From a virus, in IMG/VR virus record IMGVR_UViG_3300036981_000377, positions 36,407-100,406 of that record: a stretch of DNA of 64,000 nt; one strand, 5' to 3'. A program made the position numbers and the translations under genes. Below, piece by piece: positions 3,026 to 64,000 of this stretch; position 1 is the stretch's first letter, and every line of letters begins with the position of its first letter. Below the pieces are notes generated by a model. The model was not told the origin of the DNA. It saw nothing but the letters and a program-made list of their open reading frames with translations, and searched no databases.

Positions 3026-3096
3026 ATGCCCGACTAGGATTCGAACCTAGACTAAGAGAGCCAAAATCTCTTGTGCTACCGTTACACTATCGGGCA
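3026..3096 (-). tRNA. tRNA-Gln(TTG), no encoded CCA
   Basis: TGCCCGA acceptor stem, D arm GTGTAACGGTAGCAC, anticodon arm AGAGA-TTTTGGC-TCTCT, T arm CTAGG-TTCGAAT-CCTAG. Confidence 0.95.
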
Positions 3097-3238
3097 ACCG
3101 CGTATGGCGTCCTTACCAGTCCGACTTTCATTGCAGCTAGGGCATGAAAACCTCAAAGCTCAATGACTGTCGTTGTTATTGCCCACAAACGACTAGGGCA
3201 CCGGGCTGTAGCAACGAACAGCCTACAGCATGCCTTAC

Positions 3239-10419: not shown

Positions 10420-10779
10420 TCAGTCAACTTTCTTTTTAGCTTTTACAGCGGGCTTCTTGCGCTTCTTTTTTGCTAATTTTTTTACGCTAGTTGTAACGTC
10501 TAGCGCTTCTTTGTACGACGAAGACGTATCAATATGGCTATCATCGCGTACTTCACGCCAAAGTTGATCAAAATTTGCGCGCGTAGTTAAGAGCTCGTTT
10601 TCTAGCTCGCGTACAAACGTGAACAACGCGCTAGTAAAACGCGAATGCACGTCGCCGCTAGACTGCAACCCTTCAACCATAAGCTCGAGCATCTCATTAA
10701 AGTCTGCGAGCTTACAGAGCTGTGAGTCTAGGTCATTCAGCCTGTCCCAGTGTTTCATTGTCATTATTTGCTCCTTCAA
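10420..10779 (-). CDS. Hypothetical coiled-coil protein with Lys-rich tail
   Basis: ORF; probable start near 10764 after AAGGAG. Confidence 0.65.
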   Translation of the reverse strand: MKEQIMTMKHWDRLNDLDSQLCKLADFNEMLELMVEGLQSSGDVHSRFTSALFTFVRELENELLTTRANFDQLWREVRDDSHIDTSSSYKEALDVTTSVKKLAKKKRKKPAVKAKKKVD

Positions 10780-11224
10780 AAGTTGTGTCTTCTAACTCAA
10801 GCAGTTCGTAGCCGAGTTTTTCGCGCTGGTCGTTAATGCGCTCTAAAAGTAACGCCGCAGCTAACTCAAAATTATCAACTTCAATAAACGGCAGAGTTTC
10901 TTGCAAGTGCTTAAGCTTTGTCGGGCCTACGCCTGCAATACGAATTTCATTCGGTCCCTGCTCTGTAAACAACTCCAGGCGCGCAATGTTTGCCGCAATG
11001 TAATTTTTCGTAAAAACAAGAATGCGCCCTTGCTTGTCTACAAAAAAAGCTGTGTTCTTTTCGTTTGTAATAACCCAACGAATAGCGTCTTCGCCGGGGT
11101 CTGTGTAGTGCTTAACTTTTGGCACGATACGGGAGCTAGGTCCGCGCCCGTGACACCGCTTGAATTTATCCCCAGAACCGCACGGGCAGCCCTCGTTGCG
11201 CCCAATCCTGTTACGAATAGCCAT
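10733..11224 (-). CDS. SEC-C motif zinc-binding protein
   Basis: IGRNEGCPCGSGDKFKRCHG matches the SEC-C motif. Confidence 0.85.
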   Translation of the reverse strand: MAIRNRIGRNEGCPCGSGDKFKRCHGRGPSSRIVPKVKHYTDPGEDAIRWVITNEKNTAFFVDKQGRILVFTKNYIAANIARLELFTEQGPNEIRIAGVGPTKLKHLQETLPFIEVDNFELAAALLLERINDQREKLGYELLELEDTTFEGANNDNETLGQAE

Positions 11225-11284
11225 ATGCCCTCCTTGCGAAAATGCGAGAGGCGCTAAGTGTACGCGAAACTAAGATTTAAGCAA

Positions 11285-16387: not shown

Positions 16388-16466
16388 TGTCGCTCCCTTG
16401 CGGTTAGTGTTACTGCTGACGACACAACTTATTGTCGTGTCGCTATTCTTGTTTTTTTGCGCCACA

Positions 16467-19287: not shown

Positions 19288-19316
19288 CGTATCCTCCGTG
19301 AAAAACAAAACATCCG

Positions 19317-21474: not shown

Positions 21475-21999
21475 TTAATAGGAAGCGTAGACAGTGCACG
21501 GTTTGCCGGTCTTAGCTTCTTTTAGTTCTGCTAGCGTCACAAAATCCCGAAAAGACTGAATGACAGCGTTCACGAGTTCTTCGCCGTCTTCAGGATAAAG
21601 GCTCAGACAGCGCTCGCGTACAGCTTCTTCTACCGTCATTGGGGTAGTCTTGCCCGACGCGGTAAATTTTGGCGTAACTGCGGTTCGGCCTATTTTTTCG
21701 CTCATTTCTGTTAAAAGCGCGATTAACATCATTGAGGTGTTGTGACCGCCATCGCAGTCCATAGCCGGCTCTGTAACATTTGTAAGTCGTTCTCGCATAA
21801 CGGCTGCTGGGATCTGCGCCTGACAGTCCTCGGCCTCGAACGCTTCCCGCACTAGAATCTTGGTGGCGTAAGGTCCGCCGTGATACGCCTCGCGCAGATA
21901 ACCTACGGCACCGCTGGTCGTAGAAAATCCGCAATCGGTTTGCTTCTTCTTGTCTTTTTTAGACTGTCGCTTCCACTTAAGATAGATATCAATTCCCAT
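21475..21999 (-). CDS. Hypothetical protein (MGIDIY..GYLREAYHG..ASY)
   Basis: Start re-called at ATG 21999 after AAGGGA. Confidence 0.75.
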   Translation of the reverse strand: MGIDIYLKWKRQSKKDKKKQTDCGFSTTSGAVGYLREAYHGGPYATKILVREAFEAEDCQAQIPAAVMRERLTNVTEPAMDCDGGHNTSMMLIALLTEMSEKIGRTAVTPKFTASGKTTPMTVEEAVRERCLSLYPEDGEELVNAVIQSFRDFVTLAELKEAKTGKPCTVYASY

Positions 22000-22024
22000 G
22001 ATTCCCTTTCTGCGTAAAAAGAAA

Positions 22025-22054
22025 GAGGGCGCCGGGTACAAACCCAGCGCCCTC
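22025..22054 (-). terminator. Intrinsic terminator
   Basis: GAGGGCGC/GCGCCCTC stem with TTTCTTTTT tail on the minus strand. Confidence 0.7.
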
Positions 22055-22088
22055 CGTGGCGTCATTTCTCGCCCGCGTTAAACGTCGC

Positions 22089-22385
22089 TTACCGACGAAC
22101 CGGCTTCACGACCGTCCGCGTAGTCTTGCGCACTACCTTGCCGCCGAAAAGGCGGTTACGGCAGCTCTCAGACGACTGCGAATTGGCACTGTACAGCCGT
22201 GAGTTGCCGCACTGATCGCCAACGCAAATCAGCTGCGGACCGCTCGAGCAATTACCGTCGCAGCAACCACCATTGCACGGGGCGGCAGCTGCTTCCTTGT
22301 TGACCAGCACGCTCTGTGGCTCCGAACCACCGAACGAAACACCGGCCGTCAGAACCACGAACGCAAACGTAAAAACAGAACGCAT
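22089..22385 (-). CDS. Secreted small Cys-rich protein
   Basis: GAGGA SD; MRSVFTFAFVVLTAGVSFG signal peptide; 7 Cys. Confidence 0.7.
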   Translation of the reverse strand: MRSVFTFAFVVLTAGVSFGGSEPQSVLVNKEAAAAPCNGGCCDGNCSSGPQLICVGDQCGNSRLYSANSQSSESCRNRLFGGKVVRKTTRTVVKPVRR

Positions 22386-22444
22386 AGTAGAGTCCTCAAA
22401 AACCAAAAGAAACGTTGCTGACATATCCGTATGCCCGCAATTTG

Positions 22445-31043: not shown

Positions 31044-32969
31044 ATGACACCCAATTTGTTGCAGGATAACGCGCTGCTGCGTGAACAAAATTTTGAGATA
31101 CCGGACAAAGGTATTCGCCACCTTGTTCAAGAATTGATGAGTATGGACTGCACCGACGCGCATGCTATAAACGCGCGGGCAGGCATATTATCTGAACTCG
31201 CTAATAAACGCTTTTTCCCATCCTTGGAGCCGTTGCTTCCGTTAGTGCTTAATCTAAACGGTAAGCCGTATAACCTATCTGGACATTACCCGTTTGCCCC
31301 ACTTTTCAGGCTGCTTATGCCTAAAAATTTGGTGCTAAAAACAGGTCGGCAGGTTTCTAAAAGTACCTCACTAGCTGCGCACGGCGTTGTGCTGGCCAAC
31401 TGCCTGCCGTTCTTTAAAACTCTGTACATCACGCCGCTGTACGAACAGATTCGCCGTTTCAGTAACAACTACGTGCGATCATTTATTGATCAGTCGCCGA
31501 TCAAAAGTCAGTGGTGCGGCACTGACACTGAAAACAATGTATTGCAGCGTTCGTTTAAGAACAAAAGCATTATGTTGTTTAGCTTTGCTCTTCTTGATGC
31601 TGATCGCGTCCGCGGTATAAGTACTGACCGCGTGGTTATGGACGAGATTCAAGACATGGATCCCGACCACATTCCGATCATTCAAGAAACGATGTCGTAT
31701 AGTCGATACGCGATGCTTCACATGGCCGGGACCCCAAAAAGTCTGGACAACCCGTTAGAGGGCGCCTACAAACGCTCAAGCGGCGCCGAGTGGTTCATTC
31801 CGTGTGAGTCGTGCCGATACTGGAACATACCGTCAATCGATCACGATCTCGATAAGATGATCGGGCCGTACAACATTCACATTAGTGAAAAATATCCGGG
31901 AACTGTCTGCGCAAAATGTCAAAAGCCAATTAACCCGCGTTACGGCCGATGGGTTCACCGCAAAGAAAACCAGCGCTGGCAATTTGCTGGCTATCACGTG
32001 CCGCAGCTTATTTTACCGTTGCATTTTGCGGACCCTGAAAAATGGTCTGCGTTGCTCCTAAAGCGTGAAGGCTTTGGCAACATGACGCAGGCGCAGTTCT
32101 ACAACGAAGTTTTGGGCGAATCTGTTGACGCGGGCCAAAAACTCATTACAGAAACCGAGCTTAAAGCCGCATGCTTGTTAGAGTGGCCAAACAAAAAAGA
32201 ACCAGAACCAGAAATTTTCAACAACATCAAAAACTACAAGCACCGCGTCATGGCCATTGACTGGGGCGGAGGCGGTGACGAGGGTATTTCATTTACTGTT
32301 ATTACAGTTCTTGGTTTTAGATACGACGGCTCAATTGACGTACTCTGGGGCAAGCGGCTCTTACTTGGATCAGAGCACCTAGCCGAAGCAGCCGAGTGCA
32401 TGAAGTGGGCGCAAAGATTTAAGATTGATTACGTAGCGCATGACTATACAGGCGCCGGAACTGTTCGCGAAACCGTAATGGTGCAAGCAGGCTTTAAACT
32501 TGAGCGTGTCATGGCTATTCGCCTTGTCCGAGCGGCTAGTCAGGACGTCATGGTGTTTAAAGAATCTACGCCAATTAATCATCGGCAGCATTACTCACTC
32601 GACAAGACTAGGTCACTGCTGTACACGTGTCAGGCTATTAAGCTAAAACGTGTGCGCTTCTTTAAATATGACTGGGAATCGCAAGACGATCCCGGCCTTA
32701 TTGCTGATTTCTTAGCGCTTGTAGAAAACAAAACAGAATCGCGCATGGGCGGCGACATTTACACAATTACGCGCAATACGCTGCTTAGTGACGATTTTGC
32801 GCAAGCTGTGAATATAGGATGTGCCGCTATTTGGCACATTAACGATGCTTGGCCTAATTTTGCCGAAATAGCCGGCGTAGGCGCGATTAGTCAGCAACAG
32901 GCGCAAGGGCAAAACCCTGAAGACTGGGCAGACGACGACATGGGTGGTCGCTTTTTTGGTCAGCCGTGA
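31044..32969 (+). CDS. terL: Terminase large subunit, GpA-like
   Basis: KTGRQVSKST Walker A-like, VMDEIQD Walker B, GTPK coupling motif, WFIPCESC..CAKC zinc ribbon, FYNEVLG, MAIDWGG RNase H-like nuclease, DDFAQA. Confidence 0.9.
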   Translation: MTPNLLQDNALLREQNFEIPDKGIRHLVQELMSMDCTDAHAINARAGILSELANKRFFPSLEPLLPLVLNLNGKPYNLSGHYPFAPLFRLLMPKNLVLKTGRQVSKSTSLAAHGVVLANCLPFFKTLYITPLYEQIRRFSNNYVRSFIDQSPIKSQWCGTDTENNVLQRSFKNKSIMLFSFALLDADRVRGISTDRVVMDEIQDMDPDHIPIIQETMSYSRYAMLHMAGTPKSLDNPLEGAYKRSSGAEWFIPCESCRYWNIPSIDHDLDKMIGPYNIHISEKYPGTVCAKCQKPINPRYGRWVHRKENQRWQFAGYHVPQLILPLHFADPEKWSALLLKREGFGNMTQAQFYNEVLGESVDAGQKLITETELKAACLLEWPNKKEPEPEIFNNIKNYKHRVMAIDWGGGGDEGISFTVITVLGFRYDGSIDVLWGKRLLLGSEHLAEAAECMKWAQRFKIDYVAHDYTGAGTVRETVMVQAGFKLERVMAIRLVRAASQDVMVFKESTPINHRQHYSLDKTRSLLYTCQAIKLKRVRFFKYDWESQDDPGLIADFLALVENKTESRMGGDIYTITRNTLLSDDFAQAVNIGCAAIWHINDAWPNFAEIAGVGAISQQQAQGQNPEDWADDDMGGRFFGQP

Positions 32970-33190
32970 TTTTCTGTTGGCACCCGCTCGACGATGTCTG
33001 GCGGGCAAACGCAAGACAGAGATCGCCCGTTGTCCCACTTGACTAACAATTGCGTTTGATTTTTTTCGTCGTAAAAATATAGTGGCACAACTTTTAGTAT
33101 TGTGCCCATAGTCCCAGCGGGGACAGGATCAGGGTCATTGGGCATGTGCGCCAACTTGATCCTGTCCCCGCTTTTTACATCAGGAAGCAT
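32960..33190 (-). CDS. DUF4314-like protein
   Basis: GDRIKL..M.NDPDPVPAGT.GT...VKWDNGRSL...D. Confidence 0.8.
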   Translation of the reverse strand: MLPDVKSGDRIKLAHMPNDPDPVPAGTMGTILKVVPLYFYDEKNQTQLLVKWDNGRSLSCVCPPDIVERVPTENHG

Positions 33191-34382: not shown

Positions 34383-34826
34383 TTATGAGTCACAGTAGAT
34401 GACGATCTTACAACCACAACGTCGCGCAAGCTTAATTACTGCGTTGGCGTAAACAGATACAGGTAGCTCCCTATCTATAAATCCGCCGGTGATTAACGCC
34501 TGCAGCCCTAACTGGGCATATCCGCGATTTCTAAGCTCAGGGTCGGTGAAACACTCGACTGTCTGCGCCATTATTTTTTCGCCTTTGAAGCGTTCGGGCC
34601 ACAATCTTGTGCCAACCCACGCCACTAAAAGGCTATTGTGCCACACAAGGGCAATAGCCATTTCTGGGTGCGGGCCGGGTGTAGGGCTTAGATAGCGCTT
34701 TTCGAGTTCTTTTTGAATAGAACTGTCGCTGCCAGAATTCGGCCAAGACAAGCGCGTGTAGATCGCTGTCACGTCGGTAACCGCGAGCTTGTTGATATCG
34801 CGGATACGAATCTCAAATTCGTTCAT
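34383..34826 (-). CDS. GNAT-like acetyltransferase
   Basis: FTDPELRNRGYA resembles acetyl-CoA motif A (V.P..R..G.A). Confidence 0.6.
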   Translation of the reverse strand: MNEFEIRIRDINKLAVTDVTAIYTRLSWPNSGSDSSIQKELEKRYLSPTPGPHPEMAIALVWHNSLLVAWVGTRLWPERFKGEKIMAQTVECFTDPELRNRGYAQLGLQALITGGFIDRELPVSVYANAVIKLARRCGCKIVIYCDS

Positions 34827-34862
34827 GGCGGGCACTCCGTTGCCTACCACTTATTATACGAA

Positions 34863-34935
34863 AGCCGGCGGTCGGACTCGAACCGACGACCTGCTGATTA
34901 CAAATCAGCGGCTCTACCAACTGAGCTACACCGGC
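34863..34935 (-). tRNA. tRNA-Thr(TGT), no encoded CCA
   Basis: GCCGGTG TA GCTCAGTTGGTAGAGC, anticodon arm CTGAT-TTGTA-ATCAG region, T arm GTCGG-TTCGAGT-CCGAC. Confidence 0.96.
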
Positions 34936-35264: not shown

Positions 35265-37895
35265 TTAGCCGGCATTTTTTTCTTCTGTAGTTTTGTAGTC
35301 GCTCCAGAACATATCGCACCACTCACGTTTAATTAAAAAACCCGGCGATTTGTGAACAATCTCTTCTCCACAAAATACGCCTTGTTTTGTAAAACAGTGT
35401 AGCAAAGCTATCCAATTTGGAACAATGCCGGTTTTAATTAAATACGTATCAATTGCTTTACGGCTTAACCACCAATGGTCTTTCCCGCGGACCACGTAAT
35501 TTTGCGACTGCGTTTTAAAGCGGGGCCTCGGCAAAATGTCTATTTTTCCAGTGCAGATAGCTTTGTTTAGCTCTAGCATGAGCGCTTCGTGCGCTGTGTC
35601 TGGCTGCATTATAATTTGCTCTGCAGCGCTAAGATTAAATGTCGTACCGTATGTTTCGTCTAGCCATTTGTGCGCATCTCTAAGCACCGCGGGTAAAAGT
35701 TTTGCGCCGATGGCTCCGAAGCCCATACGTTGCCGCAAGACTCTTTGAATGTACGCCGGCACGATAAATCGCAGTGGCGTGAGGTCTGCTGTAAAGCTAG
35801 GGCAAGCTAGTGGGGCTATTCCCGTCCAACCGTAAGTCAACGCGGCGGGTAAACCAGCCGCCGTAACCTTAAGCAGCACAGGGCGATTAGGGTATCTGAT
35901 TATGCTGCTGGAGATATAGGTGTCGGTTTCGTGCGGCGAATAAATCAAGCTCGGGCCTGCCGCGCTTTTTATTGCTGTTCCGATAGACGTGCGGCTAGCT
36001 TGATATATGGCTCCAATCTCGCTGATGGTGCAGTTAAGCGCTTTGCCGCAGTTAATCGCGCTAGTGTATGCGTCTGAGCGTATTGCAACGCTGGTAGGCG
36101 GAATGTTCAGTATGGGCGCAATCATGTCAGTTAACACGGCTGCTGTGACCGCCCAGACAAACGCATTCTCGTGCGACGGGGTTAGTAGGTTGTGAATCGA
36201 GAGCGGCGCGGCAATGCTGGGCTCCGGGAAATCAAATTGCCGATTGGTCTGCAACTGCGAACATACGGCCGGCGTAATAGCGCCGTCGTTGGTGAGCGAA
36301 TAAGCCGCAAAATGGAACTCGCGTGTTTTGTCGTCCCAGCCCGGGGTGTTTGATACTGTGACTACCGGCGGCGGGTGAAGTCTAAGTGCAATCTCAGTCG
36401 CGCGGGTATCCCATCGCGGGGCGGTAATTACCAATTCGCCACGGGCGGCAAACAACTGCCCGGCGTACGTTAGCAAGCCCACTCGTTCTATGCGCGAGGC
36501 CGGGGAGAAAAACTCTACGATCTGATCGGTCTTTTTTACGTAACCCTCGTAATACTTGTCGCCCTTTTCGGTGTAAATAACGCGGGTAATTACTGGAACG
36601 CAATTTGTTACACACAGGCCGCTTGCCGTAAACCAACCGCCGTCGCGCTCAATTACCTCAAAGTTTACATTTTTGTTCGGCGCAATTCCGTGATGTGGCT
36701 GCACCTGTTCAATAATCTTTATTACGGCTAATTCTGGCAACGCTGTTTTATCTTTTAAGAATTGCTGCAGTTTTTCCCGAGGGACATGCAGCTTAGACGC
36801 AAACGCCACGGCTTCCGTTTGATTTAAGCTGTTCACGTGATTTTCAAGCGTCGTCTGCCACGTTGACGCTGATTTGTATATTCGGCTGAGCTGGCGCATT
36901 GTCTGTACCGGCATTGTCGGCTGCGGCTCTGATACGACATCGGTAACACAGACGTATCCTCTTGAGTTGGCTGCCTGAGAAATAAGTTCCGGCGTAACAC
37001 TGCTGCCTGCAAACATTTTTTTAGTTTGCGGGAAATTGTGCAGTGTAGTTGCGTGGCTTATTGCCTCGTGCCCGATGTAACTAGCGCATACTGGCAGTCG
37101 GGCAGTGTCGTGCCGCAGTTGCGTGATGTGCGTTTTTAAAGCCCAGCACGGGTCGTCAGATATAAATAGCGCCTCGTTAAGCGGCGAGCCAGTCGGTAGG
37201 AGCGCGTTTTGCAACAAAAAATAACCAGAATCAACGCGACGCAGCCGGGTTGCCATATTCGGCACGTACGCTGTTTTTGTTTCTGTTTCTGTTCCGTGCT
37301 GCATAAACAGAAAGCCAGTATGATGATTAGGCAGATCATAATACGGAAACACAATAATCGGGTGCCGCGGGCGCATGTGGCGCGGAAAAGACCGACCAAT
37401 GCTGGCGCAGAATTCAACGCCGCGGGTACCCGGAACAGTGCCTATGAGGCCGAGGCAGGGTATTTCCCGCGATATGCCGTATTCGCGGTATTTTTGCAAA
37501 ATGATATCATTCGCATTAACCCACAGGCTTTCGGCTGCTTCTGTCCAAAATTCATGCGCTGCTCGTTGCCGGTCGTTTAAACGCAAAATATCGGACACGT
37601 CTTCGCTATTTGCCCGACCGGCGACCAGTCCGCTGTCAACTAGCCGGTCGATCGCGGCTGTTATGTCTACCTTCCAGATTTGCGCTGCGAATGTTATGAT
37701 ATTTCCGTGGGCCGAGCAGGTATTGCAGTTTAACCAGATATCTTCTCGGACCGTATTATCAAAAGCGTAAAGTGTCGTCTCCCCACAGAACGGACAGCCG
37801 AGCACGGTAGGAAAAGACGAGTTTTCCACCGAAAGGCCAATAAAGGCTAGCGCGTTCGTGTGGTTGTGGCGGCGGATTATGGAGCTAATTAGCAT
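35265..37895 (-). CDS. Large protein with N-terminal primase-type zinc finger (putative replication protein)
   Basis: CPFC...CNTC..GNIITF resembles the DnaG/CHC2 zinc-binding domain; no clear TOPRIM or Walker motifs seen. Confidence 0.6.
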   Translation of the reverse strand: MLISSIIRRHNHTNALAFIGLSVENSSFPTVLGCPFCGETTLYAFDNTVREDIWLNCNTCSAHGNIITFAAQIWKVDITAAIDRLVDSGLVAGRANSEDVSDILRLNDRQRAAHEFWTEAAESLWVNANDIILQKYREYGISREIPCLGLIGTVPGTRGVEFCASIGRSFPRHMRPRHPIIVFPYYDLPNHHTGFLFMQHGTETETKTAYVPNMATRLRRVDSGYFLLQNALLPTGSPLNEALFISDDPCWALKTHITQLRHDTARLPVCASYIGHEAISHATTLHNFPQTKKMFAGSSVTPELISQAANSRGYVCVTDVVSEPQPTMPVQTMRQLSRIYKSASTWQTTLENHVNSLNQTEAVAFASKLHVPREKLQQFLKDKTALPELAVIKIIEQVQPHHGIAPNKNVNFEVIERDGGWFTASGLCVTNCVPVITRVIYTEKGDKYYEGYVKKTDQIVEFFSPASRIERVGLLTYAGQLFAARGELVITAPRWDTRATEIALRLHPPPVVTVSNTPGWDDKTREFHFAAYSLTNDGAITPAVCSQLQTNRQFDFPEPSIAAPLSIHNLLTPSHENAFVWAVTAAVLTDMIAPILNIPPTSVAIRSDAYTSAINCGKALNCTISEIGAIYQASRTSIGTAIKSAAGPSLIYSPHETDTYISSSIIRYPNRPVLLKVTAAGLPAALTYGWTGIAPLACPSFTADLTPLRFIVPAYIQRVLRQRMGFGAIGAKLLPAVLRDAHKWLDETYGTTFNLSAAEQIIMQPDTAHEALMLELNKAICTGKIDILPRPRFKTQSQNYVVRGKDHWWLSRKAIDTYLIKTGIVPNWIALLHCFTKQGVFCGEEIVHKSPGFLIKREWCDMFWSDYKTTEEKNAG

Positions 37896-39075: not shown

Positions 39076-39260
39076 GCGCACGTTTCAAGTACGCTTTTTA
39101 GCTGCTTGATCTGCTCTCGCAGCTCAGCCACAGCGTCGACTCGCTCCTCCGCGAGGGTTTTCTCGTACGCAATACAAACGCGCAATTTAATATTCTCTGC
39201 TTGAAGCGTTTCAATTTGAGCGCGATAGCCTTGGCTAAAAACGTTACTCAGTAAACCCAT
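39045..39260 (-). CDS. Small coiled-coil protein
   Basis: AGGAG SD; the start codon lies in a GGA-loop hairpin. Confidence 0.65.
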   Translation of the reverse strand: MGLLSNVFSQGYRAQIETLQAENIKLRVCIAYEKTLAEERVDAVAELREQIKQLKSVLETCAQVLDSAAKS

Positions 39261-39324
39261 CCGTGAGTTTTCTCCTAGGTGTCTTTCCAGTAAACTGCCA
39301 GAAACAATTTTACGGCCAGCTATT

Positions 39325-39546
39325 TTAAGTTGCCGGCTTTGACATCTTCATAGTCGGCGACAGCGCTGCTCGTTGCGCGCTGATGTCAAACTTAAATTTG
39401 CTAATTAGCTCTGTGCGCAATATTGGCACGTCTGGTGCTGTCTCGATGCCGATTTTTACCGCGCCGTTTTTTAGCTCTACTACAGTTATCTTGACGTTAT
39501 TGCCAATTTGAATCGACTCGTTTAACCGCCGCGTTAAAACTAACAC
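39325..39546 (-). CDS. csrA: Carbon storage regulator CsrA/RsmA homolog
   Basis: MLVLTRRLNESIQIGNNVKITVV...VKIGIETAPDVPILRTEL matches the CsrA signature; AAGGA SD, GTG start. Confidence 0.92.
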   Translation of the reverse strand: MLVLTRRLNESIQIGNNVKITVVELKNGAVKIGIETAPDVPILRTELISKFKFDISAQRAALSPTMKMSKPAT

Positions 39547-54143: not shown

Positions 54144-56003
54144 CTACGAGCCGGATATGGTGATAATACCTGCTAGCCGCAGCAGCCCGACTTCAGACGT
54201 ATACGTGTCCGTCGATGTTCGACGCAGCGTTACAAGTACTGTGTCGCCCTGCGCAACATTAAACTCTGCCGTTTGAACTTCGATTGCGTTGTCTGCGTTT
54301 ACCGTAACTGCAGACGCAAAAGTTAGCGGAGTAGAGTTGTCAGTAAGTATCAGCGGCTCTTGAGTAATACCAACGGGCCGGGGCAGAATGCGGTATTTAA
54401 CCTCTAAGGCAGGCAGCGTTCCTGCGCCGCGCCCAAAAAGCTGCGCCGAAATCTTCATTACGGGTGAATTACTTAGCCCGGTGTTCGGTACGTTAAATCG
54501 CACACGCACAGACGATTCCTGCGATTCAGGAAAACCAAGATAAGGGATATCGCGGTACAAGCGTTCAACAACATCGCTAAGGCGAATAATTTGAGGCGAG
54601 ATCTCGCGGTCAATTGCCGAGTCGTTAAACGACAGGCGCACGATACCTTGCTGCACGGTGACTGGTGTGGCAGGCAGCAAACCAAATGATGTTTTTTCGG
54701 CTGTTGTAAGTTCGCGCGTATTTGTGCCAGTTAATACAACTATGTCATTATCGCTAAATACGCCTTCTGTTAACCAGCCAGTTCGAAACGTATTGCCGTT
54801 GTCAATTCGCTTGAGTGCTTTGCCGCCGTTTACGTCAGGTGTGCCGACAAGGAAGTCTAGATCAAGCGACAGCTCAAGATCGCCAGTGCGGGCTGTTACG
54901 CCGTCACAGTTTGTAATTTTTATCGGGCTGGTGTCTGCGGCGTGCAGGCTGGTCACGACACTTCGATCGTTACCGAACGTCATGCGCAAGAAGGCCACGA
55001 TTACGCGCATACGTTCTTCACGCGGGCACTCCGGGCCAGTAGTTGATGAGCTAGAGCTCGTCGGCGTATCCGTCCACGGTACGTCTCCGGGGCAGTCGCT
55101 CATCCACCAAATACCGTTGGCGTCGCAAACCGCAAGTCCTGACGCGCCGAGCGGAATCTCAAAAGCGCCAGTTAAATCTTCGCCTTTATCCCAAAGAACG
55201 GCTACGGCCGATATCGGCGTCGGCGGCCACACGCGTGAAATGGCCGGATGCCCTTTCAAGTTGTACCCAAACGCTGCGCCAGCCGGCGCCTTACCGTTAA
55301 AGCTTGCGTGACTTGCAGGCAGCCAGCCCGGCGTAATTGTTACATCGGTTGCCGGATCGACTGTGACAGCATAGTGGCCGTTAGTGAGCGTGGCGGTGCC
55401 AATAACCGCCGGCGTTAGTTCGAATCGATAGTGGATGTGGTCCTCGAGAAAATCGCGGACCTGCGGCATCACTACTACCCACGGATCAGCGGCGCAGTTC
55501 TCTTTAGCGCCCTGCACGTAGCAGACAGACACAGTGGCAGGTGGCCGTTGTTTTGTTAATTTGCCCGGTTGCTCAGAAGATAAATAATATCTTCCAGCTT
55601 CTACGGCGCCGGTAATTGCATTTGTGATATTTGGCATCTTTACGATGCCGCGCAAAACTACGTCGCCTAGCGTGTTGGCTTTCTTTTTGTGCAACAATCC
55701 AAGGCAGTCAGATGACGCCTGCACAACTAGCGTCTGAGTCACCTCGTCGTTTTCAACTGCGGCAAGAGCGCGCTCATATCGCTGTGTCTGGTAATTCCAG
55801 AATACTGGCTGCCCCTCAAGTACGTCGGGCGCGATTGTGGCGTCAGCGTCAAACAACGCCTGCCCAAGGGCGGCGGCGTCGAGCCGATCCTTCAAATAAT
55901 TTGTTCTTGACTCAAGCGCTGTATCGGGCCTGCCGGCAATATTTGCTTGTACCGGCTCGCCTGCGACAATGTGCCGAATGTTATAAAGCCACTTATTGGA
56001 CAT
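54144..56003 (-). CDS. Putative tail-associated structural protein
   Basis: GEPV.A....RP...LESRTNYLK resembles tail-fibre N-termini; GRYYLS...PGKLT. Confidence 0.7.
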   Translation of the reverse strand: MSNKWLYNIRHIVAGEPVQANIAGRPDTALESRTNYLKDRLDAAALGQALFDADATIAPDVLEGQPVFWNYQTQRYERALAAVENDEVTQTLVVQASSDCLGLLHKKKANTLGDVVLRGIVKMPNITNAITGAVEAGRYYLSSEQPGKLTKQRPPATVSVCYVQGAKENCAADPWVVVMPQVRDFLEDHIHYRFELTPAVIGTATLTNGHYAVTVDPATDVTITPGWLPASHASFNGKAPAGAAFGYNLKGHPAISRVWPPTPISAVAVLWDKGEDLTGAFEIPLGASGLAVCDANGIWWMSDCPGDVPWTDTPTSSSSSTTGPECPREERMRVIVAFLRMTFGNDRSVVTSLHAADTSPIKITNCDGVTARTGDLELSLDLDFLVGTPDVNGGKALKRIDNGNTFRTGWLTEGVFSDNDIVVLTGTNTRELTTAEKTSFGLLPATPVTVQQGIVRLSFNDSAIDREISPQIIRLSDVVERLYRDIPYLGFPESQESSVRVRFNVPNTGLSNSPVMKISAQLFGRGAGTLPALEVKYRILPRPVGITQEPLILTDNSTPLTFASAVTVNADNAIEVQTAEFNVAQGDTVLVTLRRTSTDTYTSEVGLLRLAGIITISGS

Positions 56004-56028
56004 CCTTGTCCTCCGAGGCGCTTAAAAG

Positions 56029-59325: not shown

Positions 59326-64000
<4,675 letters not shown>

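Follow-up and report, generated by a model that had tools for sequence, protein, structure and literature searches.

The virus record IMGVR_UViG_3300036981_000377 of IMG/VR is 100,406 bp long, and the window analysed here is its final 64 kb (64,000 nucleotides (nt), positions 36,407 to 100,406 of the record), in which the minus strand carries almost every gene. Within this window lies an intact gene for the RNA-binding regulator CsrA, together with hairpins that present GGA in their loops at the translation starts of phage genes. Two of these hairpins, at the starts of a 619-amino-acid (aa) gene of the virion module and of a GNAT-like acetyltransferase gene, are, on sequence comparison, real conserved elements of a statistically clear, clade-specific class that matches the CsrA binding site. 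The conserved hairpins suggest a translational circuit run by the phage; that they are CsrA-type translational operators seems to us an evenly balanced call. The features concerned are as follows.

39325-39546, minus strand: csrA, the candidate regulator gene (73 aa, intact, GTG start, AAGGA ribosome-binding site 6 nt upstream)
55998-56017, minus strand: hairpin GGACA-AGGA-TGTCC (55998-56011), which encloses the ATG of the 619-aa gene, plus the ribosome-binding site GGAGGA
54144-56003, minus strand: the 619-aa virion-module gene, a putative target
34827-34848, minus strand: hairpin GGTAGGCA(ACGGAG)TGCCCGCC, with the ribosome-binding site of the GNAT-like gene in the hexaloop and a 3' arm that ends at the ATG (34826)
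34383-34826, minus strand: GNAT-like acetyltransferase gene, 147 aa, a putative target (weak match to Pfam Acetyltransf_1, E = 0.002, below cut-off)
34863-34935, minus strand: tRNA-Thr(TGT), found with ARAGORN and Rfam, 15 nt upstream of the GNAT hairpin

In the proposed mechanism, the phage makes a CsrA that shares its RNA-binding residues with CsrA of E. coli and RsmE of Pseudomonas, and in a subset of phage mRNAs the hexaloop A-N-G-G-A-N, closed by a C-G pair, holds either the ribosome-binding site or the start codon. A CsrA dimer, phage-made and possibly also host-made, would clamp the loop and exclude the 30S subunit, and this clamping would lower or delay translation of the chosen genes. 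Two targets are predicted in the window, the 619-aa gene and the GNAT-like one; relatives would add the genes for the major capsid protein and its upstream neighbour, a gene of ~795 aa and a gene of ~950 aa. Binding by CsrA, a repressive (not activating or stabilising) effect and the identity of the acting CsrA are inferences from sequence.

The presence of an intact csrA, reported by the first-pass annotation, was upheld by the Pfam CsrA model (PF02599; 69.7 bits against a cut-off of 27, over residues 1-50 of 53), by a match to PHROG 9500 (CsrA-like regulator) and by an alignment with proteins of known structure. This alignment was gapless over residues 1-58 with E. coli CsrA (1y00) and RsmE (2jpp), and the phage protein retained the RNA-contact residues L2, L4, R6 and R7 of strand 1 and the RNA-contact positions V40, V/I42, R44, E46 and I/L47 of strand 5; H43 was replaced by L and E45 by T. 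The leader of csrA itself (AAGGAA) had no convincing stem when judged by eye, unfolded, and thus gave no sign of autoregulation.

The record represents about half of a jumbo phage of ~200 kb, since genomes of relatives in IMG/VR are as long as 194-205 kb (terminal repeats are present in some of them) and fragments of close relatives of 94-120 kb are rated 46-59% complete. No close relative was found among cultured phages (megablast, and tblastn with the large virion proteins); the capsid and terminase proteins alone had matches, of 24-31% identity, in Salmonella phage Arash and in Vibrio phages. The DNA runs containing the phage are sediment, runoff and freshwater metagenomes, and no RNA runs are listed. 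Relatives were retrieved with the 619-aa, 226-aa, GNAT and capsid proteins, and 17 related genomes or fragments were assembled. The major capsid protein of the clade is a 309-aa protein, 28% identical to its counterpart in Salmonella phage Arash, and its gene is absent from the present fragment. Genes were called with a simple caller based on codon usage and ribosome-binding sites, and some starts are wrong; such errors add noise, but they cannot give rise to a signal specific to a single loop register.

Hairpins at the 619-aa and GNAT-like genes

The first-pass annotation had listed five hairpins with ANGGA-type loops at phage translation starts and proposed that CsrA acts on them. All five (at 55998, 34831, 39253, 22420 and 16393) read as described, and those at 55998, 34831 and 39253 present GGA in a loop that overlaps the ribosome-binding site or start codon. 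The expectation that the stems would be conserved in relatives was borne out at 34831, by covariation, and at 55998, by invariance, but not at 39253 and 16393, where the hairpin is lost.

The site at the start of the 619-aa gene is the best conserved of the window. Its hairpin (folding free energy, dG, -4.7 to -6.2) can alternatively be read as GGAC(AAGGAT)GTCC, which matches CANGGANG, the motif within the RsmE/CsrA consensus (A/U)CANGGANG(U/A) (Schubert 2007, as given in PMC6849547). The sequence GGAGGACA[A/C]GGATGTCC was invariant across 10 relatives with 50-96% protein identity, while the spacer upstream of it was scrambled, and codon 2 of the gene was always TCC, a rare codon that makes up 8-11% of Ser codons. 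GGA motifs lie at -2, -8, -11 and -44 in this leader, and the G003/G008 lineage has a second hairpin, CACA-CGGA-TGTG, ~26 nt upstream. The site also agrees at 11 of 12 positions with the consensus RUACARGGAUGU obtained by systematic evolution of ligands by exponential enrichment (SELEX; Dubey 2005, as given in PMC6849547). The first-pass count of 11 was thus correct, though 0.4 such matches are expected by chance and 36% of shuffles have one, so that a lone match in the window is insignificant. Pfam and PHROG yielded no function for the large proteins; the 619-aa protein had no match in either, and its atlas leads (phage cement, fibre or baseplate proteins) were weak, with scores of at most 0.87.

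At the GNAT-like gene, the hairpin reported at 34831-34844 extends to a stem of 8 pairs with one mismatch (dG -8.3; relatives reach -19). Among 11 homologous leaders, 90.7% of the cells were paired against 61.5% in shuffles, none of 500 of which reached the observed value, and compensatory changes were present at 7 of the 8 pairs (controls with a slid register gave 18-43%). Stems of quite different sequences surround (A/G)(C/A)GGAG in the relatives. The loop is A-ACGGAG-T in the present genome and fits CANGGANG in most relatives, most of which also retain the gene order tRNA-hairpin-GNAT.

A different arrangement was observed in GNAT homologues without an upstream tRNA (L048:540-608, L049:530-600 and G003), which show no loop display of the ribosome-binding site. 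In these the ribosome-binding site pairs with an upstream CTTCC anti-Shine-Dalgarno stretch in a 9-13-bp stem, a different sequestering structure.

Loop geometry and csrA across the clade

A generic test, in which GGA could stand anywhere in a loop of 4-8 nt and in which flank shuffles and GGA inside coding sequence served as controls, indicated no excess of hairpins at starts. The counts were at chance level, with 24, 6 and 2 hairpins against 15.8, 5.0 and 1.3 expected for stems of at least 4, 5 and 6 bp, and start-proximal GGA was presented in loops at the same rate as GGA within coding sequence. A thermodynamic count constrained with ViennaRNA was equally null (17, 9, 5 and 2 against 17.9, 9.4, 4.7 and 2.1). 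Under this broad definition the hairpin count thus equals the shuffled expectation, the outcome that the first-pass annotation had named as telling against its proposal. The narrower A-N-G-G-A-N hexaloop behaved differently: with stems of at least 4 bp, 8 of 49 start-proximal motifs in the present genome formed such a hexaloop, against 5 of 297 elsewhere (1.7%; Fisher P = 7e-5) and against 1.1 +/- 1.0 expected from flank shuffles. Four of the five listed sites belong to this set of 8 when read as hexaloops. The same enrichment was found in eight other clade genomes; in the other seven csrA-positive genomes tested, hexaloops made up 11-18% at starts against 1.6-5% elsewhere.

The hexaloop class was defined after the examples had been seen, which weakens the case for operators. 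This concern about hindsight is reduced by a scan of loop registers, by genomes outside the class definition and by the motif known from the literature. In the register scan, 663 ribosome-binding-site GGA motifs pooled from six csrA-positive lineages were examined in 19 loop geometries, of which NN-GGA-N with at least 4 bp was the only one strongly enriched (51 against 11.1 expected, z = +10.4). An octaloop signal (29 against 12.5) probably reflects the same hairpins with the closing pair read as open, one further register was marginal (20 against 11.8, z = +2.2), and most of the remaining registers were at or below expectation. Genomes outside the class definition gave 13 hexaloops among 114 motifs (G014) and 15 among 82 (G016), each against about 2 expected. 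The literature motif CANGGANG accounted for 9.0% of start-proximal GGA motifs in the present genome and for 1.4% elsewhere.

An unbiased screen for conservation covered 52 gene families that had distant orthologues and in which the N-termini were aligned. A hairpin with GGA in its loop persisted through nearly all lineages in just three of them, those of the 619-aa gene (7/7), the GNAT gene (6/7) and a 250-aa gene outside the window. Further sites conserved across the clade were found at the capsid gene, its 186-aa upstream neighbour, the ~795-aa gene and the ~950-aa gene, all of them built as stem-C[A-Y-GGAG]G-stem. Covariation in the leader of the capsid gene extends over 34 distinct sequences (GGAAC/GTTCC, AAGAC/GTCTT, AGAAC/GTTCT, GCAC/GTGC, GATC/GATC), and the closing C-G pair of this leader is present in 34 of 34.

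These results bear on the explanation by chance, that GGA-rich ribosome-binding sites and common short flanking complementarity yield such hairpins in any phage of similar size. Chance fits the generic counts and the single 11/12 SELEX match, is the likely origin of the 16393 site and would suffice for those at 39253 and 22420, but conservation and covariation exclude it for 55998 and 34831, as the register scan, the per-genome counts and the CANGGANG test do for the hexaloop class. As an account of the whole we find it hardly credible.

The presence of csrA broadly followed that of the hairpins. All 16 ingroup genomes with a completeness of 90% or more (G007-G009, G011-G016 and G021-G027) had a CsrA match; in G016 this was a weak-scoring variant with an insert of ~25 residues after strand 1 (G016:C1:88700-89200), and in G012 a tandem form with two CsrA matches in one 184-aa frame (G012:C1:11292-11729). 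Three near-complete outgroup genomes, with capsid proteins 55-60% identical, had no csrA match and no hexaloop enrichment (0/154, 2/110 and 2/130; 0-1.8%). In these csrA-negative relatives the register scan gave 15 NN-GGA-N loops against 12.2 expected, and the orthologues of the capsid, 186-aa, ~795-aa and ~950-aa genes were stemless, with plain ribosome-binding sites. When pooled, CANGGANG was present at 153 of 1429 motifs in clade genomes and at 30 of 1040 in csrA-negative genomes (odds ratio 4.0, P = 2e-14).

The composition of the loops bears on the choice between recognition by CsrA and a role of structure as such. The first loop base was A in 88% of hairpins, compared with 45% where a ribosome-binding site lies outside any hairpin, the second was frequently C or T, which adds nothing to a ribosome-binding site, and the loops of G016 include ATGGAT, AAGGAT and ACGGAT, which are good ANGGAN motifs and poor ribosome-binding sites. 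This bias, and the use of loops that make poor ribosome-binding sites, points to recognition of a CsrA motif over mere display of GGAGG. The alternative is that the hairpins act through structure only, independently of CsrA, by displaying GGAGG in an open loop, by tuning initiation or by protecting processed 5' ends from RNase. It would fit the observations that most loops read A-Y-GGAG closed by G, a perfect GGAGG(T) ribosome-binding site, that many hairpins belong to genes whose products, like the capsid protein, are probably required in large amounts, and that the GNAT hairpin begins 15 nt past a tRNA, where processing would make a new 5' end. It also fits the lack of structure excess at starts in the generic tests and the persistence of hairpins in G020, where csrA was not detected. 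We nevertheless hold it to be rather unlikely, as it leaves unexplained the strong enrichment of just one of 19 geometries, the bias of the first two loop bases and the use of ATGGAT and ACGGAT. Orthologous genes in csrA-less relatives are stemless, the 619-aa site places a GGA-AUG tetraloop or hexaloop beyond a separate ribosome-binding site, and stems of -12 to -19 kcal/mol that take in spacer and AUG would be expected to hinder initiation and not to promote it.

The phyletic pattern of csrA is shared by seven other gene families, which limits what can be drawn from it. One of them encodes a Tas-like/IS110-Nop protein, present in 4 of 4 complete csrA-positive genomes and in 0 of 3 csrA-negative genomes:

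32066-32995 of the G000 genome (about -4340 to -3411 in window coordinates): Tas-like/IS110-Nop protein gene, with its start codon in the hexaloop ACGTG(ATGGAA)TATGT

Another clade-specific factor could thus read the GGAG loops, either this Tas-like/Nop-domain protein with a Cas7-like partner or an endoribonuclease like RegB of phage T4, which cuts GGAG at ribosome-binding sites. The shared distribution and the hexaloop at the start of the Tas-like gene itself would agree with such a factor, but those proteins have no known specificity that fits the motif, which the CsrA/RsmE site fits position by position, and we consider this very unlikely.

A further possibility is that CsrA of the host alone reads the sites, and that the phage protein serves host takeover, for example by repressing host defence or metabolism. 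It has been proposed that phage CsrA/RsmA represses host CRISPR-Cas, with a correlation with CsrA-bearing hosts (PMC8450108), and the plasmid-borne RsmQ rewires host behaviour (PMC9928087); the hairpins of G020, where csrA was not detected, would also be accounted for. The retention of csrA as a strict core gene in all 16 of the hairpin-enriched near-complete genomes argues against this, and one would expect a canonical CsrA made inside the cell to recognise these loops too. Moreover, the idea calls on a host that the phage HldE does not identify: its best matches are 31-34% identical and scattered across many phyla. We judge it distinctly unlikely.

Returning to CsrA operators on phage genes, several further points weigh against them. 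The link between csrA and the hairpins depends essentially on one split between ingroup and outgroup. G020 (78% complete) keeps the enrichment (11/82) and has no CsrA match anywhere in the contig; at the usual locus of csrA, after the 226-aa gene, it has an 895-aa gene (G020:C1:78615-82099). G029 and G030 (76% and 84% complete) also gave no CsrA match, and the unrelated csrA-positive Pseudomonas phage PA8 showed no enrichment in an underpowered comparison (2 against 0.8 expected). The closing G and the G at the sixth loop base are explained by the fact that GGAGG is itself a strong ribosome-binding site. Where regulation by CsrA is tight, the dimer usually bridges at least two GGA sites that lie 10-63 nt from each other, whereas the GNAT leader contains a single GGA. 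The benefit to the phage of repressing its major capsid gene is not obvious. Finally, conservation was not evident at three of the five listed sites (39253, 16393 and 22420).

Collectively, the proposal that CsrA operators cover phage starts was supported in its general form by clade-wide enrichment of the published geometry and motif, by covariation and by the lack of enrichment in three csrA-negative relatives, but selection was evident at only two of the five sites. In its widest form, which we put forward tentatively and with somewhat less confidence than the operators themselves, the ~200-kb jumbo-phage clade would run a self-contained Csr circuit. This would consist of a core csrA and roughly 5-16 ANGGAN operators per genome on phage ribosome-binding sites, including those of the capsid gene and of other large conserved genes that may code for virion components, so that the dosage or timing of virion proteins would be set in translation by a regulator captured from bacteria; the terminator at 22024-22061, described below, may belong to it.

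Other hairpins and motifs in the window

The remaining listed sites and further motifs of the window are as follows.

39253-39270, minus strand: hairpin AAACTC(ACGGAT)GGGTTT, covering the start codon (ATG) of the 71-aa gene that follows csrA; match to CANGGANG; 7 bp including one G-U, dG -3.7
22420-22435, minus strand: hairpin GGCAT(ACGGAT)ATGTC in the leader of a 98/111-aa gene; dG -3.0
16393-16404, minus strand: CGC-AAGGGA-GCG at the ribosome-binding site of a MazG-like gene; 3 bp, dG about -1.6
22024-22061, minus strand: intrinsic terminator, 14-bp stem plus T-run (22024-22055), from a terminator scan and minimum-energy fold
19293-19300, minus strand: CACGGAGG (match to CANGGANG) at the ribosome-binding site of a 108-aa gene (start 19287); 2-bp stem only
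11229-11236, minus strand: CAAGGAGG (match to CANGGANG) at the ribosome-binding site of a 163-aa gene (start 11224); stemless
10767-10780, minus strand: TTTG(AAGGAG)CAAA at the ribosome-binding site of a 114-aa gene (start 10764); A/U stem, dG 0; no orthologues

The hairpin at 39253 is specific to the present genome: in a 96%-identical relative the loop has become ACAGAT and the stem has gained a mismatch, and the 71-aa gene is missing from more distant relatives. The hairpin at 22420 lies upstream of the ribosome-binding site, 35-50 nt before the likelier start at 22385, and was retained in a 90%-identical relative alone; distant relatives offer no alignable leader. The 16393 site precedes a gene that Pfam and PHROG both identify as MazG, and was rejected as a hairpin operator and attributed to chance, its 3-bp stem being effectively no hairpin, altered in a 98% relative and absent in four others.

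The 5' shoulder of the terminator can fold instead as a CANGGANG hexaloop, CGCC(ACGGAG)GGCG (22048-22061), and this shoulder is conserved in G006, a relative in which the product of the next gene is 53% identical. The element could be a CsrA-sensitive terminator, or the overlap could be coincidental. The longest form of the neighbouring open reading frame (ORF; 21475-22065, minus strand) begins inside or upstream of the terminator, and the alignment of orthologues places the real start at ATG 21999, with the ribosome-binding site AAAGGGA. The 22055 hairpin was counted among the 8 start-proximal hexaloops because of this mis-called start; as a ribosome-binding-site hairpin it was rejected, being the shoulder of the terminator.

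Another ANGGAN hexaloop, TGGT(AAGGAC)GCCA (3105-3118, minus strand), was observed at no called start, 9 nt upstream of a tRNA-Gln (3026-3096).

Searches for a sponge RNA were negative: Rfam found only two tRNAs in the window, and a scan of six genomes turned up no place where three hexaloop hairpins cluster within 250 nt. A GGA-dense stretch on the plus strand (59795-60544) was rejected as a sponge or antisense RNA, being the antisense of Ser-codon repeats. It lies opposite a 1541-aa ORF (59326-63951, minus strand) that encodes a poly-serine repeat protein with SSSSLV/SSSSDV units, and whose AGCTCC codon repeats place as many as 17 GGA in 150 nt of the opposite strand.

Relation to known Csr systems

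The candidate operators most resemble the complexes of RsmE with hcnA (PDB 2jpp) and of CsrA with glgC, in which a C-G-closed A-N-GGA-N hexaloop lies over the ribosome-binding site. The regulator belongs to the same protein fold family and has the same RNA-contact residues, the 619-aa site fits the SELEX consensus at 11 of 12 positions, and the capsid-gene leaders of relatives match the 10-nt RsmE consensus exactly. The phage case differs in that regulator and putative targets share the genome of a lytic-type jumbo phage, that just one GGA hairpin is obvious at most sites, and that no sponge RNA was found in our scans. The location of the CANGGANG motif across a start codon, as at 55998 and 39253, has a parallel in the cfcR gene of Pseudomonas putida (PMC6849547); cfcR, however, is a chromosomal gene for which binding was shown by experiment, whereas the phage sites are known from sequence.

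Phages that repress several of their own mRNAs at initiation regions through a phage protein are exemplified by T4, with RegA, gp32 and gp43, which belong to protein families unrelated to CsrA and use unrelated RNA motifs.

Mobile elements that carry their own CsrA, as the present phage does, have been described (PMC7366521, PMC8450108, PMC11879866, PMC9928087): csrA genes on phages have been catalogued (PMC7366521, PMC8450108), and knock-down of csrA in phage PTXU04 led to small plaques (PMC11879866), supporting a role in fitness. This literature treats the action of the protein on the host, and we found in it, for phage and plasmid CsrA, no description of operators on the element's own mRNAs; the present csrA, in contrast, belongs to the core genes of a clade of ~200-kb phages whose own genes carry the candidate operators. 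To the role of phage csrA, which this literature takes as host-directed, these candidates oppose a concrete and testable alternative, with named phage mRNAs, exact RNA sites of 14-22 nt that bear signatures of selection, and a protein of 73 residues. If this alternative is true, the clade would have what is apparently the first virus-internal Csr regulon, a bacterial global regulator captured and repurposed for the expression of virion genes.

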